From UHGV virus genome UHGV-0179803: 64,000 nucleotides of DNA; one strand, 5' to 3'. Positions 706-7,102 of this stretch are shown piece after piece. A program made the position numbers and the translations under genes. The stretch is from a virus. The notes beneath the pieces are model-generated. The model ran no database searches. It saw only the letters and a list, made by a program, of their open reading frames with translations, and was not told the DNA's origin. How positions within the stretch are numbered: position 1 is the stretch's first letter; each line of letters opens with the position of its first letter.

Positions 706-980
706 TCCGGTAACTCCTCAACAGGGTAAACTAACAGGTGGCAATCATCATAACGCACATTCATATGTTGCCAGCAGATAAATCGGATCGCTACAAGGTT
801 GATCAAGTTACGATCACCGTGCAGGCCGACACAGACATTACGCCAGTTACTACCATTCACCACACAGGTGTCAAAGTACAATTTTTCATCAAACTTGTGT
901 TCAATATCCTGAACAATACCTTTCAGAGCGGCAAATTGTCCACCGAACACGAAGTCTCCTTCGAGATCTTTCAGTTTCAT
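702..980 (-). CDS. hypothetical protein
   Basis: ORF track; 4-nt overlap with downstream ORF suggests translational coupling. Confidence 0.35.
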   Translation of the reverse strand: MKLKDLEGDFVFGGQFAALKGIVQDIEHKFDEKLYFDTCVVNGSNWRNVCVGLHGDRNLINLVAIRFICWQHMNVRYDDCHLLVYPVEELPE

Positions 981-981
981 C

Positions 982-1455
982 TTAGTTACCTTTTGCGTAA
1001 TTCTCCAACCACGAAAAATCAGTTTCCCAGACCTTGATCTTGCTTAGTTCTCTCCACTCTTCGAAGCACGCTTCATAATACTCCTGTGCCTGCTGTTCTG
1101 TCAACCAGTTTACGTCAGCAAAATGTTTTCTTGCACGGAGATAAACATCCCTGCCGAGGCAATTGCAGCGGCCAGGATGCACACTCATATGGCAGTCTGG
1201 GCACAATGCGATCAGACCCACACAGGTGATCTTGTGATCTTCGAACAGGTACAACTCGTGGGCTTCCACAGGATGTTTAGGTCCTTTACCACCACAGACT
1301 TCGCATCTGTACTCTGCTTCTTTGTAACAGCGTTTACGGGCTTTATCCCACAAGCCACGACCGATAGCTTCACGTCCTGCTACCCCCCACAGCGGTTTAG
1401 GGATAAGCTGAACGATCAGCATTTTCTCTTCACGCATTTTACGACCGTCTTGCAT
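982..1455 (-). CDS. Cys-rich putative zinc-binding protein
   Basis: CEVCGG...H and CPDCH...H motifs in translation; promoter-like element upstream on minus strand. Confidence 0.45.
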   Translation of the reverse strand: MQDGRKMREEKMLIVQLIPKPLWGVAGREAIGRGLWDKARKRCYKEAEYRCEVCGGKGPKHPVEAHELYLFEDHKITCVGLIALCPDCHMSVHPGRCNCLGRDVYLRARKHFADVNWLTEQQAQEYYEACFEEWRELSKIKVWETDFSWLENYAKGN

Positions 1456-1496
1456 GTAGCACCTCTCTTCTTATGCATACTCTTACCAGTAGGCGA

Positions 1497-1525
1497 ACCA
1501 TAACATAATTTTCATTTGCTGTCAA
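1497..1525 (-). promoter_or_regulatory. sigma70-like promoter for 982..1455
   Basis: minus strand reads TTGACA-17 nt-TATGGT about 40 nt upstream of the ATG. Confidence 0.35.
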
Positions 1526-2127
1526 TACTGATTTAAACGCTCTCAAACGCTCTGTAACGCTGTTGGTAGTTTAGTAATGCAACTGTAGCACTTAGTCACT
1601 ATTAGCTCACCACAGAAGCTACCAGAGGCCTCAAAGCCGATTTCTGGTGTTGGGATAAGGTTGAAGCGGCGGCGCAGACTTTCGACGGCTCCTCCCGGCA
1701 GCTTCGCTTTTCGCCGTCATCCCACATTAGCACCTCCCTCACGGTCGGTGATCTTCCCACACAACTCAGGCAGCTCTGTTGTCACAGACCTGCTATGTAC
1801 CCACATACATCTTCTGGATTGTTGATAATATAATATAAAATTTATTAAAACAATCCAGAAAAATAACCACCCACAGCCTGATCATCTGCTACAAAGCACT
1901 GCTTTGTCACTCCAGTGCTGTTGTCAGTGGATCATGATAATAATTATCATTAAGAAAGAGATCATTGATCAATTTGTAACATGCATAAAAAGTATGTTGA
2001 AGAGAGATCATGGAGGTGGTGGTAAATACCACAGAACTACCATCAAACAGACAGCGGAGGGTGTGCTTGGTATTAGCACCCACCTCCTAGTCTATTTTCT
2101 TTCTTTAGAAAGAAGAAAATAGTTAGG

Positions 2128-2243
2128 TGGGCCATTATTTGGCCCTTAGAATTCAGTTTAAGGGCCATTATTTGGCCCTTGGAAGCGTTTTAAGGGCCAT
2201 TATTTGGCCCTTGGATTGACTTTTATGGGCCATTATTTGGCCC
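2128..2243. repeat. four tandem ~33-bp repeats, each a GGGCC-ATTATTT-GGCCC hairpin
   Basis: GGGCCATTATTTGGCCC occurs at 2128, 2162, 2194 and 2227 with conserved flanks CTTRGA; lies in a ~980-bp noncoding gap. Confidence 0.85.
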
Positions 2244-2435
2244 TTAGAATCACTCATATTGGTGGGATTTATGGTATTTTCTGTTTATTGTCAAACAGTT
2301 ATAACAGTATTTCATTCTGTTGGTATCTTTATATAGACCGATCAGTCTATTACAACTATTTAACAAATGCCGACACTGTACAAAATTTCTGAGTTTTCAT
2401 GTTTGACATTTCGTTAACAAATCACCAATACAGTA

Positions 2436-3110
2436 TTATTTTCTTCTTTGAGGGAAGGGTATGTGGTCATATCCTTTCCCTGCATTATCATTCACCCATT
2501 TCAGGAAGTCTATTCTGTCTTCGAACACGTATTTCAGGTCACAACCCTCTGTACGGTACAGCATCAGGTAGTTCACCTGATTGGCATCTGGTAATTCATT
2601 CACCATTGCCAGGCGACGTGCTGGTACTCTCGTGCACAGATTTTTACCATCTTGTGGTTGCCTGCTGATCACAAGGCCAATTGACTCCAGGAACTTGATA
2701 CTTTCTGCTACCTTCCGGTTCCTGTTGTGGTTCTTGTCATATGGCAATCCTGCTTCCATAGCGATTACATGTGTGGAATCCCCGCACCAGTTGTTCCTGT
2801 GCATATCTTCATAGCTTGTCTGCTTACGAATCTGGTAGCATTTGAACTGGATTCTGTTCTGATCAGCAAGATGACTCAACACTGCCTTGTCAATATTGGT
2901 CAGAAACAGGCAGCTTTTCTCTGCCCACACACTACCAGCCTCAGGGATTCTTCGCTTATCGAAATCTTTCCTGTTGGTCACATCTGCCGGATTTTTCACC
3001 CACACAGCAAACAGGTTGTCAACCTTCCGATGACAATCGTCGTTGCCAAAGCAGATGTTTTTGTTGAACCAGTTCTCCAGTACGCTTGATTTGATCTCTT
3101 GTTCTGCCAT
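2436..3110 (-). CDS. hypothetical protein
   Basis: 224-aa ORF; minus-strand promoter and RBS (GAAGGTAACAGAG-ATG) upstream. Confidence 0.45.
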   Translation of the reverse strand: MAEQEIKSSVLENWFNKNICFGNDDCHRKVDNLFAVWVKNPADVTNRKDFDKRRIPEAGSVWAEKSCLFLTNIDKAVLSHLADQNRIQFKCYQIRKQTSYEDMHRNNWCGDSTHVIAMEAGLPYDKNHNRNRKVAESIKFLESIGLVISRQPQDGKNLCTRVPARRLAMVNELPDANQVNYLMLYRTEGCDLKYVFEDRIDFLKWVNDNAGKGYDHIPFPQRRK

Positions 3111-3138
3111 CTCTGTTACCTTCTTCTGTTTTTAACAG

Positions 3139-3167
3139 AGTATAGCAGGCACAAGGCCTGCTGTCAA
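3139..3167 (-). promoter_or_regulatory. sigma70-like promoter for 2436..3110
   Basis: minus strand TTGACA-17 nt-TATACT. Confidence 0.4.
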
Positions 3168-3170
3168 TGT

Positions 3171-3290
3171 TCACTCGTCACGTAATGCTTTGATCATCTG
3201 TTCGAAGAATCTCCTTGCATCGTCGTAGTGCTTGTTCAGGAGTGCTTCTTTATAGTAGTAACGATAAACAACGTATTCAACGCCACGCAT
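3171..3290 (-). CDS. small ORF (39 aa), hypothetical
   Basis: minus-strand ATG preceded by GAGGTGG; not in ORF track because under 60 aa. Confidence 0.25.
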   Translation of the reverse strand: MRGVEYVVYRYYYKEALLNKHYDDARRFFEQMIKALRDE

Positions 3291-3298
3291 ATGCCACC

Positions 3299-3457
3299 TC
3301 ACTTGTTGTCAGCTTCAATCATCAGGAGTAATGCATCTTTGAACCCCATAAAAAGAACGCCACAGCGAATTTGCGGGTACGCCCTCAGGATTGGGAGCAT
3401 GTACACCTTCTCTTCGTCACAGAACGTTTGAACGCTGTAGAATACGATTCTTCTCAT
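3299..3457 (-). CDS. small ORF (52 aa), hypothetical
   Basis: minus-strand ATG preceded by AGGAGG at ideal spacing. Confidence 0.3.
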   Translation of the reverse strand: MRRIVFYSVQTFCDEEKVYMLPILRAYPQIRCGVLFMGFKDALLLMIEADNK

Positions 3458-3586
3458 GGTGGTTTCCTCCTATGTGTGCAAAACATATCACACCTTGTTG
3501 TGGAAGTCAAGAATAAAATCATGTTGACAACGAGATCAGGATGTGTTATCGTTCGCCAACAAGCGGATAAATGGAGGACTCATAAC

Positions 3587-3886
3587 ATGATTAGTCAAGA
3601 AACAGTACACGATATGGCACTGGCATTCATCCGTGAGGGGTGTGATGTGTGTTACATACCAAACCCTCGCCATCAGAATGACCCTGAAGACCCATCTATT
3701 TATCTTTCTGTATCTGGCAGAGGAATGGACCATCTTATCTATCTCGGACTGAGTAGTAAGAGAAGGGATGAATATATTGAAAAATACCAGCAGGCAATTG
3801 ATCAGGCAAAAGAAGACGCACATGGTGAACAGATGTACAATTTTATTCCTGGTTTGGACGATTGTAAGGATGGAGGTGCTTTATGA
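3587..3886 (+). CDS. hypothetical protein
   Basis: internal ATG of track ORF 3371..3886 preceded by GGAGG; 4-nt overlap with next gene. Confidence 0.45.
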   Translation: MISQETVHDMALAFIREGCDVCYIPNPRHQNDPEDPSIYLSVSGRGMDHLIYLGLSSKRRDEYIEKYQQAIDQAKEDAHGEQMYNFIPGLDDCKDGGAL

Positions 3887-4608
3887 AGAAGGTTTTAGAG
3901 TTTCAATTTGAAATTGCTGAAATAGGTGGAGAAAGACGGAGGCTTGTTAATGCAAGAGATTTGCATAAACAGTTAGGCATTCGTACACGCTTTAGTGACT
4001 GGATTAAAAGGTCATTAATTAATCAAAATTTCTTGCAAGATGTTGATTTTATCGTGGTTCTCAAAAATGAGTATGACGCAAGTAAGTTTGGTGGCATACG
4101 TAAGCAAGAGGAATATTTATGCACTGTTGAGACAGCTAAACACCTTGCTATGATGGCGAAGACACCGAAAGGTAAAGAGGTTCGTAATTACTTTATCGAA
4201 ATTGAAAGAAAGTACCGCGAGTACATGATTGAGCAACGGAGGTTGGCAAGGAAGATGCTTAACATGGAAAGCTCAACAGATATGGTCTGCATAACTGTTT
4301 CGGCGAAGAAAATCGCTAAAGTGCTTGGGATAACCATGTCTGTGTTTGACCTGAATGGATTCTTGAGGACGGATGGTTACAAGCATAAACATTGGTATAA
4401 CGCAACTCTTGCTGGTCAGGAGGTGTGGAATGATTGGGTTATGAAAAGCAAATATGGGGGTCATAGGTTTACAAGCCAGAACAGTATTAACATTGTGCAA
4501 TGCCTGCTTTATGAAAAAGGTATTAGTAAGCTGGAGGATGACATTTGGCAAGAACTTGTTTGGATTGTGTTCATGAAGAATTGGGTTGATTATCTTGCCA
4601 ACAGATGA
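3883..4608 (+). CDS. Bro-N/KilA-N/AntA-like DNA-binding protein (antirepressor-type)
   Basis: N-terminal FQFEIAEIGGERRRLVNARDLHKQLG...FSDWIKR pattern resembles phage Bro-N/AntA N-terminal domains. Confidence 0.45.
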   Translation: MKKVLEFQFEIAEIGGERRRLVNARDLHKQLGIRTRFSDWIKRSLINQNFLQDVDFIVVLKNEYDASKFGGIRKQEEYLCTVETAKHLAMMAKTPKGKEVRNYFIEIERKYREYMIEQRRLARKMLNMESSTDMVCITVSAKKIAKVLGITMSVFDLNGFLRTDGYKHKHWYNATLAGQEVWNDWVMKSKYGGHRFTSQNSINIVQCLLYEKGISKLEDDIWQELVWIVFMKNWVDYLANR

Positions 4609-4662: not shown

Positions 4663-4863
4663 ATGGATAATCCTGTTGCTAAAAACTGCAACAAGTTTAA
4701 CAAAGCTGCAACTCATGCTGATCGGAAGAAAGGTTGGTGTCCAGATTTAGACGAAGGACTTGAAGAGTACTTCGAAGATGAACTGGAAGACCTAGCAGAC
4801 AATGCTCAAGAGATTGCAATCAGGGAATATGCAGAAAGAGCGAAAGCTGCAAGAATTTGTTGA
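4663..4863 (+). CDS. hypothetical acidic protein
   Basis: ATG preceded by AAAGGAGG; internal start of track ORF 4609..4863. Confidence 0.4.
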   Translation: MDNPVAKNCNKFNKAATHADRKKGWCPDLDEGLEEYFEDELEDLADNAQEIAIREYAERAKAARIC

Positions 4864-4942: not shown

Positions 4943-5185
4943 ATGTTTAAGGTTAAGCTCGTTTTCAGATCCTTAGAAGGAGACTATTTAGAACACGAAT
5001 CTGAACACAGATTCTTTGATGATGCTTTTGAAGTTGCAAACGATATTGCCTGCGAGAACACAGGTTACGGACTGGAGTTCTGGGAAGGAGGTGCACAAAT
5101 AGATAAAAGCAAAATCTTCTATTTTTACCCGGATCCAGAATGCAGACATGTGAAATATGTGTTGTTCTTCTGTGTATTGCAATAA
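4943..5185 (+). CDS. hypothetical protein
   Basis: ORF track; RBS-like AGGAAATGCT-ATG. Confidence 0.35.
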   Translation: MFKVKLVFRSLEGDYLEHESEHRFFDDAFEVANDIACENTGYGLEFWEGGAQIDKSKIFYFYPDPECRHVKYVLFFCVLQ

Positions 5186-5899: not shown

Positions 5900-5975
5900 G
5901 CCCCGTTAGTTCAAATGGAAGAACAGTGGCCTTCTAAGCCATAGGTTACAGGTTCGAGTCCTGTACGGGGTGCCA
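5900..5975 (+). tRNA. tRNA-Arg (anticodon TCT)
   Basis: hand-folded cloverleaf: acceptor GCCCCGT/ACGGGGT, D-stem GTTC/GAAC, anticodon loop CTTCTAA, T-arm ACAGG-TTCGAGT-CCTGT, 3' GCCA. Confidence 0.8.
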
Positions 5976-6809: not shown

Positions 6810-7102
6810 GGTGGTTACTTGCATTAGCGATTGCACTCACGTTTTCTATGGCCCTGGTAGGTTGTAGCTCACCTAAAAGTACGCCAGTTACAGTTGCACC
6901 GCAGAAAGTTGAACAACTTGCTGTAGAGCCTCCTGCGGCAGCTATGATCCCACCAGCAATAGCTATCCCCTTGGTGAAAGGTGCACCAGATGCGGATAAC
7001 TCTGCAATTATGAGGCAGAACAATCTCTCCTGTAGCAATGATCGTGCCAAATTAATCATCTTGCAGGATTATGTAAAATCTTTATTCAATAAGGAGAATT
7101 AA
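6806..7102 (+). CDS. o-spanin (Rz1-like outer-membrane lipoprotein)
   Basis: signal peptide ending in lipobox LVGC, proline-rich mature part; immediately downstream of and overlapping the i-spanin gene. Confidence 0.6.
   Translation: MRWLLALAIALTFSMALVGCSSPKSTPVTVAPQKVEQLAVEPPAAAMIPPAIAIPLVKGAPDADNSAIMRQNNLSCSNDRAKLIILQDYVKSLFNKEN

Follow-up and report, generated by a model that had tools for sequence, protein, structure and literature searches.

A single-locus array of 17-bp palindromes as a candidate replication or control site in an rV5-like phage

A gene-free region of an uncultured phage distantly related to rV5 carries four exact copies of a 17-bp palindrome. The copies are regularly spaced, constrained in sequence, confined to one locus, inverted in two relatives and allelic to a different cassette in five others. 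We tentatively propose, at a probability of about 0.4, that a dimeric protein, possibly the 224-aa product of the adjacent gene, binds the array as a series of phased double-stranded sites in an origin-like or regulatory complex. The design is a familiar one: in this new rV5-like phage the palindromes most likely serve as docking sites of a DNA-binding protein, which makes the array a candidate site of replication or control.

RESULTS

A gene-free region with four identical palindromes

The window analysed, a stretch of 64,000 nucleotides, belongs to one of eight related uncultured phages of ~140 kb, which are distantly related to rV5 and not represented in the phage database. Positions 1456–2435 are flanked by two minus-strand ORFs, an HNH endonuclease gene (982–1455; PHROG 5200, E 1e-52) and a 224-aa orphan ORF (2436–3110). 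The absence of genes in this interval, claimed in an earlier sequence-only reading, was borne out. No conserved ORF and no tRNA was found there, and Rfam searches of the region and of its counterparts in two more distant relatives, L009 and L011, gave no match at gathering score, all matches obtained in E-value mode being far below threshold. The ORFs inside the region, none longer than 72 aa, are broken by indels in close relatives. As candidate genes we rejected a 41-aa ORF (1602–1727, minus strand), frame-shifted or truncated in L010 and L008, and, on frameshifts, indels or truncation in relatives, a 58-aa ORF (1907–2083, minus strand) and plus-strand ORFs of 72 and 62 aa. Nucleotide searches of the region against the phage database, with settings for near and distant similarity, returned no match. 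GC content falls to 0.32–0.33 at 1801–2000 and 2201–2500, versus 0.43–0.50 in the neighbouring genes. The region adjoins a divergent promoter junction syntenic with rV5 genes 81/82, and the structural gene block starts at 7102, ~5–8 kb from the array.

The four hairpin units described previously are present, the first starting at 2129 and not at 2128. The array (2129–2243) comprises four exact copies of GGGCCATTATTTGGCCC at 2129–2145, 2162–2178, 2194–2210 and 2227–2243, each with a 6-5-6 architecture (GGGCCA TTATT TGGCCC). Start-to-start distances are 33, 32 and 33 bp, with spacers of 15–16 nt; TRF reported a period of 33, 3.7 copies and a score of 172. Allowing up to 3 mismatches, we found no further copy across the 64 kb, and four copies were reached in 0/100 shuffles. 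The array occupies a single locus per ~140-kb genome. Searches of IMG/VR, JGI metagenomes and 185,579 species genomes revealed none outside its own clade. Diverged arrays were sought as two occurrences of GGGCCA-N5-TGGCCC in viral, metagenome and genome collections; the other matches came from one organelle-like contig and from GC-rich repeats in coding sequence, all unrelated, and were rejected. Similarly, tandem palindrome copies with any loop in the 185,579 species genomes were only unrelated GC-rich repeats. A CRISPR-like or RNA anti-CRISPR mini-array was also discarded: the whole period is 33 bp, versus an expected repeat of ~28–37 nt plus spacers of ~30 nt, and the single Rfam CRISPR-DR match in the region (1811–1861) lies outside the array and scores 21 bits against a gathering score of 47.

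The palindrome is conserved, the spacers only in length

The array occurs with 2–4 copies in 8 related genomes, and its spacing is 32–34 bp in the seven others. We compared 19 copies of the 17-mer from five close genomes (~87–95% identical across the cassette) and counted a single substitution over 323 nt, against a divergence of ~25% in the spacer cores. Stems and core agree at 17/17 positions between lineages with 25–40% divergence in the flanks. By this comparison, the 17-mer is under strong sequence-specific constraint relative to the spacers. These vary in sequence, with a length held at 15–17 nt across array-bearing genomes. In L009 and L011, the exact 17-mer is present twice, separated by 17 nt (34-bp spacing) of unrelated sequence. 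Retention of spacer length without sequence fits helical phasing. Both ends of the 2-, 3- and 4-copy arrays are always whole 17-mers.

With respect to the conserved flanks (ATCCCACCAA..TCTAA upstream, ACCTAACTAT and a palindrome downstream), the 17-mer of L009 and L011 has the opposite orientation. The inversion leaves the duplex site the same and changes the RNA loop from AAUAA to UUAUU. The array starts there 3–16 nt past the stop codon of the 224-aa homologue; the AT-rich spacer that runs from this stop codon to the array in the window (2250–2435, GC ~0.33) is absent in both.

The array belongs to an exchangeable block

The block 1795–2494, which we call the Type A cassette, is replaced in other close relatives, L008, L010, L012, L071 and L072. 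Alignment and blastn coordinates place its right junction within the 3′-terminal ~19 codons of the 224-aa ORF. The replacing Type B cassette consists, in the same slot, of a 132–145-aa winged-helix gene, different iterons and AT-rich palindromes. The iterons of L008, L010, L012 and L071 comprise 3–4 direct and 2 inverted copies of GGTA[T/C]GGAAACC; the L072 contig ends 54 nt past the winged-helix gene, so that its iterons would lie beyond the sequence seen. The winged-helix ORF of Type B and rV5 gp075 show weak mutual resemblance, and both match Pfam DUF6945 below threshold. Foldseek with a low-confidence model of the Type B protein gave weak matches to RepA_N plasmid initiators, which at a pLDDT of 55 are to be read as weak hints. 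A tblastn search with this protein against the phage database found no match.

A neighbouring protein as candidate partner of the site

The 224-aa ORF lies directly upstream of the array in transcription order, and its product has a winged-helix-like segment at residues ~109–161. A consensus scan placed a sigma-70-like promoter before it on the minus strand (3139–3167; TTGACA-17-TATACT, 11/12, with a TG extension). No family was matched in Pfam, PHROGs or PDB sequences, and tblastn against the phage database was negative. Its homologues form 6 clusters only, plus one distant relative of 306 aa, the sole addition when 1.8 billion representatives were searched exhaustively with a profile. Similarity to the winged helix of rV5 gp075 was weak (hhalign E 0.007, probability 5%), and the AF2 model, with a pLDDT of 41, was unusable.

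The gene precedes the array and is intact in 8/8 array-bearing genomes, the homologue in L009/L011 being 57–58% identical. All genomes with the 17-mer share one putative recognition stretch, HNRNRK, without change. In the distant homologue P0008 this stretch differs, and so does the repeated palindrome that follows, TGTTCAA-N9-TTGAACA. Among genomes without the array, L010 encodes a homologue with an 11-aa deletion in the putative wing, and in L072 the gene is truncated at its 5′ end. In three Type B genomes the protein is intact and the 17-mer is missing.

Other elements of the region

Directly distal to the array lies an AT-rich palindrome (2092–2122), CTATTTTCTT(11 nt)AAGAAAATAG, which is kept in the distant relatives together with the ACCTAACTAT junction. 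The long imperfect palindrome GGAGGGTGTGCT..AGCACCCACCTCC reported earlier was located at 2056–2087; this GC-rich hairpin is T-rich on the flanks of both strands and hence resembles a terminator acting in both directions. Its position is taken by another GC hairpin in L009 and L011. Further on, a plus-strand promoter-like sequence (TTGTCA-18-TATCAT, 1921–1950), a consensus match, overlaps a Fur-box-like palindrome that matches at 17/19 positions at 1930–1948 and has a second register at 1936–1954. These are the only two Fur-box matches with up to 4 mismatches in the 64 kb, where shuffles gave 0.27 per window.

The AT-rich inverted repeats also proved correct: TTCTGGATTGTT (1812–1823) and AACAATCCAGAA (1849–1860) form perfect 12-nt arms at the left edge of Type A and enclose a 25-nt spacer made of A and T only. 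The GC-rich block stood as well, with a GC content of 0.56 over 1601–1800 versus 0.32–0.33 in the flanking AT-rich blocks. Its nearly invariant part (1660–1740, minus strand) is common to Type A and Type B genomes and probably non-coding, because the 41-aa ORF is frame-shifted or truncated in L010 and L008. Homology of this block to rV5 DNA downstream of gp075 was considered and rejected (three short collinear seeds, not significant). A sigma-70-like promoter of the HNH gene (1497–1525, minus strand; TTGACA-17-TATGGT) is kept in 6/6 aligned genomes and is preceded by a 10-bp tandem repeat, AAACGCTCTC, in 2.7 copies (1535–1561).

Concerning usual origin motifs, one DnaA box with one mismatch lies at 1820, versus 33 such sites in the window, five GATC sites within 150 bp (1880–2010) only tie the window maximum, so that neither motif stands out, and no repeated 13-mer-type motif was identified in the AT-rich flanks of the array.

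DISCUSSION

Proposed phased binding sites for a dimeric protein

We infer protein binding, the identity of the protein and the role of the complex from the comparisons above. Site centres are 32–34 bp apart, about three helical turns, a distance at which a single sequence-specific protein could bind as neighbouring dimers on one helix face. The most likely partner would be the upstream-encoded 224-aa protein with its winged-helix-like segment, and the complex, in DNA of 32–33% GC on both sides, may serve as an origin-like or autoregulatory site. The sequence-only reading had listed iteron-type protein-binding sites, a pac-like site and a structured RNA as candidates. Among these three, the comparative data favour the first, through the constraint on the 17-mer, its uniqueness, its survival of inversion and its allelism to a cassette of winged-helix gene and iterons; the partition function mentioned with it found no support. 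Several observations count against phased binding sites. A dimer site would not usually have an invariant A/T core, and the corresponding cores of rV5 vary; the plus-strand fold advantage and the loop-located variation described below fit terminators; and Type B genomes retain the 224-aa protein without the sites. On the same side stand the lack of a significant family or structural match to the 224-aa protein, its weak similarity to gp075, the mostly regulatory annotation of gp075 and the undistinctive DnaA and GATC sites. At the same junction, KPP-1 and Hena1, from other Vequintavirinae genera, have no comparable module, thus the array is not a universal origin.

An extended version of this reading is doubtful. 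The 224-aa protein would be the founder of an undescribed phage initiator family, the palindromes its iterons and 1795–2494 a swappable origin cassette. The Type A allele would then pair the upstream protein with identical palindromes phased at three turns, and the Type B allele its own RepA_N/DUF6945-like winged-helix protein with iterons; inversion within the palindromes would switch the strand that bears the tandem terminator.

Terminators and other explanations

The main rival, which we consider somewhat less likely, is that the array is a set of tandem plus-strand Rho-independent terminators or a transcriptional insulator. Terminators had been discounted earlier because no hairpin was followed by a U-tract. 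This holds for the within-unit register and for the minus strand, where a stem followed by a U-tract is absent, but the dismissal was premature, because another pairing register gives terminator-like hairpins. In this register, the GGCCC of one unit pairs with the GGGCC of the next, and a plus-strand scan detected three such hairpins in the array, with 11–12 pairs, loops of 3–6 nt and the tail TTATTT. The terminator unit would consist of the arm TGGCCCUURGA, a variable loop, the arm UUUAAGGGCCA and the tail UUAUUU, one per 33 bp, and its tandem duplication would automatically yield the within-unit GGGCC..GGCCC ‘hairpins’. Such a block would stop transcripts from the promoter-like site at 1921–1950 from entering the 224-aa gene antisense; in L009/L011, the inverted array would end the sense transcript just past the stop codon.

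Several data agree with terminators. Non-Watson-Crick pairs of the extended stem are all G-U on the plus strand, and in five genomes the plus-strand RNA folds better by 10–18 kcal/mol (−63 to −72 versus −54 to −56 kcal/mol on the minus strand), but this asymmetry may just reflect plus-strand G+T richness. Substitutions among close genomes fall within loops of the between-unit hairpins. The same strand carries, 180 bp upstream of the array, the promoter-like site with its 17/19 Fur box, a consensus match only. In L009/L011 the orientation of the T-tract agrees with the gene, and the array follows its stop codon within 3–16 nt. However, the between-unit hairpin of these genomes is poor (loop of 11–17 nt, 6–9 pairs; a 6-bp stem and a 17-nt loop in L011), and a stronger GC hairpin with a U-rich tail lies within 50 nt. 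Compensatory changes are tolerated in terminators, yet the 17-mer is 17/17 identical across diverged lineages, and a conserved spacer length without conserved sequence is not required of a terminator loop. In addition, the arrays end in complete 17-mers that include half-sites without a pairing partner, and three or four identical tandem terminators would be unusual.

Alternatively, the units could be protein-binding RNA hairpins in the minus-strand sense transcript, for antiterminator recruitment ahead of the GC hairpin terminator, as with lambda nut/boxB, or as a multi-hairpin decoy or sponge RNA, which we regard as improbable. In the sense strand each unit folds as GGGCCA AAUAA UGGCCC, an A-rich pentaloop on a GC stem of 6 bp, and the layout of strong promoter-like site, 224-aa gene as the first of any size, array and terminator-like hairpin resembles pR-cro-nutR-tR1. 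But between the same flanks the sense loop of L009/L011 is UUAUU instead of AAUAA, and loop-specific RNA recognition would thus be lost. There is no boxA-like sequence beside the hairpins, and the covariance-model check against Rfam of the structured RNA suggested earlier matched no known family. Also, bacterial species genomes that were scanned have no tandem palindrome copies, so the array is not a mimic of a host CRISPR array or REP cluster.

A shade less probable still is a selfish or neutral palindromic repeat without phage function, either MITE- or REP-like or a by-product of recombination. Copy number varies (2, 3, 4), units are inverted and reshuffled, and Type B genomes do without the entire block. 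The many dispersed copies per genome that are the hallmark of REP/BIME or MITE elements were nevertheless not seen, the array occupying one locus per ~140-kb genome with no copies elsewhere in any collection, and, among lineages whose neighbouring proteins share ~57% identity, the 17-mer is under strong purifying selection relative to the spacers.

Least probable of all is a packaging or terminus signal, whether a pac-like site or a repeat beside a direct terminal repeat: the array is unique in the genome and ~5–8 kb from the start of the structural block, and the termini of phage Gotham lie in ~2.5 kb of non-coding DNA rich in direct and inverted repeats, and Vequintavirinae have a fixed packaging start and terminal repeats of 459–514 bp (PMC7471380, PMC9862379). 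However, the location of these short direct repeats in a different, convergent non-coding region makes this reading unlikely (PMC7471380), the Gotham termini being at a convergent junction and the array between co-oriented genes beside a divergent promoter junction, with no sequence similarity to the Gotham terminal region and with Type B sister genomes whose lack of the array is hard to square with an essential packaging signal.

Significance for rV5-like phages

No replication origin or early regulatory site is known to have been defined in rV5-like phages (Vequintavirinae), which are isolated widely with a view to treating infections by E. coli, Klebsiella, Salmonella and Cronobacter; skew analysis failed to place an origin in the rV5 genome (PMC3606486). 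The array, the palindromes that follow rV5 gp075 and the Type B cassette represent three cis elements with candidate partner proteins, all near one divergent promoter junction. Should they prove to be origins, the allelic cassettes would mean that large lytic phages exchange origin modules; should the array be no more than a terminator block, it would be routine.

Comparison with known systems

Tandem intrinsic terminators share with the array GC-rich stems with a U-rich tail on one strand and, in L009/L011, the position after a gene. They differ from it in that the sequence here is invariant instead of covarying, the loops are long in the distant relatives and the end half-sites are unpaired. 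In the sopC centromere of the F plasmid, a unit of 43 bp is repeated in tandem, and SopB binds a short inverted repeat in every unit. Similarly, the array is made of tandem units with one dyad-symmetric site each and an inter-site sequence free to evolve, but no ParA/ParB-type genes were seen near it. The relatives are lytic myoviruses for which no plasmid stage is known.

The lambda origin contains four dyad-symmetric iterons of ~19 bp, to which O protein binds through dimers of its winged-helix N-domain, with an AT-rich region adjoining. The O gene itself contains these iterons, which are spaced by about two helical turns and differ from one another in sequence. Both systems have four tandem dyad sites of 17–19 bp, integral helical phasing, an AT-rich neighbour and a single copy per genome. 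Here, in contrast, the sites are intergenic, three turns apart and identical including the core, and the initiator is a candidate only.

The Type B cassette occupies the identical slot (1795–2494), between the 224/236-aa gene and the invariant GC block. Unlike the array, it carries its own candidate binding-protein gene, and its repeats (GGTAYGGAAACC) are direct and inverted 12–16-mers with 22–24-bp spacing, versus identical palindromes here.

In rV5, four 17-bp 6-5-6 palindromes, TGTCCG-N5-CGGACA, spaced by 21–22 bp, come right after gp075 (NC_011041, ~65,150–65,310) and are followed by a very AT-rich stretch; they are apparently not described in PMC3606486. Annotations of gp075 are mostly as transcriptional regulator, ‘replication initiation’ being a putative label. 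This module differs from the array in its half-sites, its spacing (21–22 versus 32–33 bp), its variable instead of invariant core and its place on the opposite side of the divergent junction. It resembles the array in the 6-5-6 design, the four copies, the position downstream of a (putative) winged-helix gene, the adjoining AT-rich DNA and a distance of no more than ~2 kb to this shared divergent promoter junction. As phased binding sites, the array would be the functional counterpart of both the Type B winged-helix gene with its iterons and the palindromes that follow rV5 gp075.

A palindrome array in a gene-free region

The window derives from an uncultured myovirus and had no nucleotide match among 50,697 phage records. 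Between 1456 and 2435 we found no convincing gene, as the sequence-only reading had proposed: ORFs are all at most 72 aa, the small ones are disrupted by indels in close relatives, and neither a tRNA nor an Rfam family was detected there. The AT-rich and GC-rich blocks described for this region are both present, as are an imperfect GC palindrome (2056-2087) and AT-rich inverted repeats, in the form of a perfect 12-nt inverted repeat at 1812-1860. The four tandem hairpin units proved to be exact copies of GGGCCATTATTTGGCCC, starting at 2129, 2162, 2194 and 2227 (TRF period 33), with a 6-5-6 palindromic architecture, GGGCCA-TTATT-TGGCCC. No further copy with up to 3 mismatches occurs in the 64 kb and no shuffled sequence contained four copies; the array is real and non-random.

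Two cassette types occupy the locus

The locus was recovered from about a dozen contigs, via the motif and via the 224-aa protein encoded directly upstream of the array (ORF 2436-3110, -). Only six homologue clusters of this protein were found in 5.8 billion proteins, and one further distant relative came from a profile search over 1.8 billion representatives. The contigs fall into two types: array-bearing Type A (the window, L006, L007/L019, L026, L034 and the distant L009 and L011) and array-less Type B (L008, L010, L012, L071 and L072). In Type B, window 1795-2494 is missing and replaced by a 132-145-aa ORF with sub-threshold winged-helix matches (Pfam DUF6945, MarR_2, PHROG replication-initiator and DnaD-like families). 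Past this ORF, four genomes (cassettes at L008 6690-7830, L012 6729-7770, L010 1458-2500 and L071 4001-5000) carry 3-4 direct and 2 inverted repeats containing GGTA(T/C)GGAAACC at 22-24-bp spacing, then an AT-rich 35-60-nt inverted repeat followed or accompanied by several ACTAAGT palindromes; repeats were scored in these four, the L072 contig stopping 54 nt past the gene. The T or C of the repeat is a one-base difference between genome subgroups.

The flanks are common to both types, including the promoter-like site of the HNH gene and the GC-rich block (1660-1740, -), which is nearly invariant in six genomes of both types, the neighbouring non-coding DNA varying by about 10%. At its start the block has GGAGGTGCTAATG, which combines a Shine-Dalgarno sequence with an ATG, but the small ORF there lacks conservation (frame-shifted in L010, truncated in L008), and RNAalifold detected only four covarying pairs in six sequences.

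The 17-mer is conserved and its spacers turn over

Identity over the cassette reaches 87-95% in the five close Type A genomes, whose arrays hold 4, 4, 4, 4 and 3 copies; the 17-mer shows 1 substitution across these 19 copies, and the spacer cores of the window and L006 are about a quarter different. In L009 and L011, whose upstream protein is just 57-58% identical, two exact 17-mers each lie 34 bp apart and the array starts 16 and 3 nt after the stop codon, respectively. Their spacers have no sequence in common with those of the window, with a length of 17 nt versus 15-16 nt. Flanks are collinear in all genomes, with ATCCCACCAA..TCTAA before the array and ACCTAACTAT, an AT-rich palindrome and a GC hairpin after it. 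Despite this collinearity the 17-mer is inverted, reading in gene orientation GGGCCAAATAATGGCCC in the window group and GGGCCATTATTTGGCCC in L009 and L011. One unit with its flank, GGGCCAAATAATGGCCCATAAAA, is found as an exact reverse complement in L009, which points to recombination within the palindromes as the probable source of the inversion.

Outside this clade, a scan of IMG/VR, JGI metagenomes and 185,579 species (one genome for each) for two tandem GGGCCA-N5-TGGCCC with any core returned only unrelated matches, namely GC-rich coding repeats and one organelle-like contig. Downstream of its array, L009 has 3.2 kb without a called gene (977-4186), with several repeat families inside. A GC-rich stretch conserved between L009 (1225-1395) and L011 (1605-1775) is a candidate structured RNA, given five compensatory base-pair changes between the two sequences and no Rfam match.

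Phased protein-binding sites as the preferred reading

We consider a set of phased protein-binding sites the most likely reading of the array, with a probability of about 0.4. The pattern of change suggests that what is selected is the 17-bp sequence as duplex DNA, and not an RNA loop or simply a stable stem: the 17-mer, core included, is invariant across lineages with diverged flanks, its inversion is tolerated, spacer length is kept while spacer sequence has turned over, and a whole 17-mer stands at both ends of every array. Centre-to-centre distances of 32-34 bp, about three helical turns, would let dimers line up along the same face of the helix. Of the candidates proposed earlier, the comparative data favour the iteron-type protein-binding sites. 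The module is not subfamily-wide, being missing from KPP-1 and Hena1 at the divergent promoter junction near which the array lies, so that the array, if an origin, would be a lineage-specific one. In rV5, skew changes follow transcription orientation, not an origin (PMC3606486).

The Type A cassette contains no protein-coding gene and the 224-aa ORF is its sole constant neighbour, making the product a candidate binder on circumstantial grounds. Residues ~109-161 (STHVIAMEAGL..NRNRKVAESIKFLESIGLVISRQPQDGKNLCTR) have the appearance of a helix-turn-helix plus wing and align weakly with the winged helix of rV5 gp075 (hhalign E 0.007, probability 5%; BLASTP E 0.04-0.08). An HNRNRK stretch is invariant in all homologues accompanying the 17-mer; in the distant homologue P0008 a different stretch takes its place and two copies of a different palindrome follow the gene. 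Among array-less Type B genomes, the homologue carries an 11-aa deletion in the putative wing in L010 (763-1440) and misses its first 42 codons in L072 (3400-3984). Against a binder role, three array-less Type B genomes retain an intact copy. No family or structure match to the protein was found and its AF2 model was unusable. The L010 homologue also has a divergent C-terminal third, and in another recombined protein, P0007, only the C-terminal 60 residues are of the 224-aa type, behind an AntA-like N-terminus.

Possible plus-strand terminators and other readings

The main rival, a coherent alternative that we judge only somewhat less likely, takes the array for a tandem block of plus-strand terminators. 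A terminator role for the hairpins had been doubted earlier; however, the units can also pair with their neighbours, GGCCC of one with GGGCC of the next, which gives three plus-strand hairpins of 11-12 pairs, all with UUAUUU directly behind them and all reported by a terminator scan. On the plus strand every wobble pair is G-U, and in five genomes the array is 10-18 kcal/mol more stable there than on the minus strand; the positions that vary fall in the loops of these between-unit hairpins. A sigma-70-like promoter sequence, TTGTCA-18-TATCAT (1921-1950, +), lies about 180 bp upstream, and a transcript from it would first run through the GC hairpin at 2056-2087, which has a U-rich tail, before reaching the array. 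In L009 and L011 the inverted array has a T-tract in sense orientation just past the stop codon, but the hairpins there have loops of 11-17 nt and short stems, and a better GC terminator lies no more than 50 nt further on. Moreover, the 17-mer is invariant in sequence and not covarying, spacer length is conserved, and unpaired half-sites are kept at both array ends, all of which speaks against terminators. The protein-site and terminator readings are not mutually exclusive.

Overlapping this promoter-like sequence is a Fur-box-like site, GATCATGATAATAATTATC (1930-1954), with a 17/19 match to the E. coli Fur-box consensus and a second overlapping register; these registers are the only matches with ≤4 mismatches in 64 kb (shuffles, 0.27 per window). 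L006, L007 and L026 conserve the site; in L034 it is degraded, and L009, L011 and the Type B genomes do not have it. It could be a sign that a lytic phage has iron-responsive transcription.

A pac-like site, also proposed from sequence, or a terminus is unlikely: Vequintavirinae have fixed ends with terminal repeats of 459-514 bp (PMC7471380, PMC9862379), those of Gotham lie in a convergent non-coding region not syntenic with the array region, and Type B genomes are array-less. A nut/boxB-like or decoy RNA role does not fit the loop inversion, and REP- or MITE-like and CRISPR-like readings (the latter with the 33-bp period) were rejected on the single locus per genome and the absence of tandem copies from the bacterial genomes scanned.

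Genomic setting and a parallel module in rV5

Minus-strand genes span 3457 down to 150 and plus-strand genes start at 3587, which places a divergent promoter junction at ~3460-3590, syntenic with the rV5 gene 81/82 junction. Small proteins encoded at 436-705, 4663-4860 and 4943-5182 share ~65% identity with rV5 gp083, gp072 and gp071, and the HNH endonuclease (982-1455, -) shows ~58% protein identity to rV5-like phage counterparts. The different genomic neighbourhood of the latter suggests a mobile homing-type gene; the gene in the window has its own promoter-like site (1525-1497), and L008 has a divergent allele at the same place. tRNA genes noted in the window are four, Arg-TCT (5900-5975, +) and a Met-CAT, Thr-TGT, Arg-CCT cluster (58080-58323, -). 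A group I intron (Rfam RF00028, 84 bits) adjoins the terminase gene of a related phage (L012 302-631, -); none was detected in the window.

An AntA-domain anti-repressor-like gene (3883-4608, +) has no counterpart in the otherwise collinear L006-L008, which differ from the window across 3836-4603; here, too, next to the divergent promoters, lies a slot whose content is exchanged. The corresponding slot of rV5 holds gp073-gp077, including a winged-helix gene and palindromes.

In rV5 (L013, NC_011041), four 17-bp 6-5-6 palindromes, TGTCCG-N5-CGGACA, directly follow gp075 at 21-22-bp spacing (locus 2200-2320, record ~65,150-65,250, -), and beyond them come about 120 nt of very AT-rich DNA, containing GATC and CTAAGTAC palindromes, and a GC-rich stretch. 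This layout is apparently not described in the rV5 genome paper (PMC3606486). RefSeq names gp075, a winged-helix protein of 116 aa, as 'replication initiation protein', and elsewhere it is annotated as 'putative transcriptional regulator'; both it and the Type B ORF give sub-threshold hits to one Pfam family, and the two show a weak alignment. Taken with Types A and B, three related phage groups thus carry three different phased-repeat sets within ~2 kb of one promoter junction, two of which adjoin a winged-helix gene. The gp075-palindrome layout resembles lambda ori, and the array adds a new example of a well-known design, from a phage clade not yet characterised.
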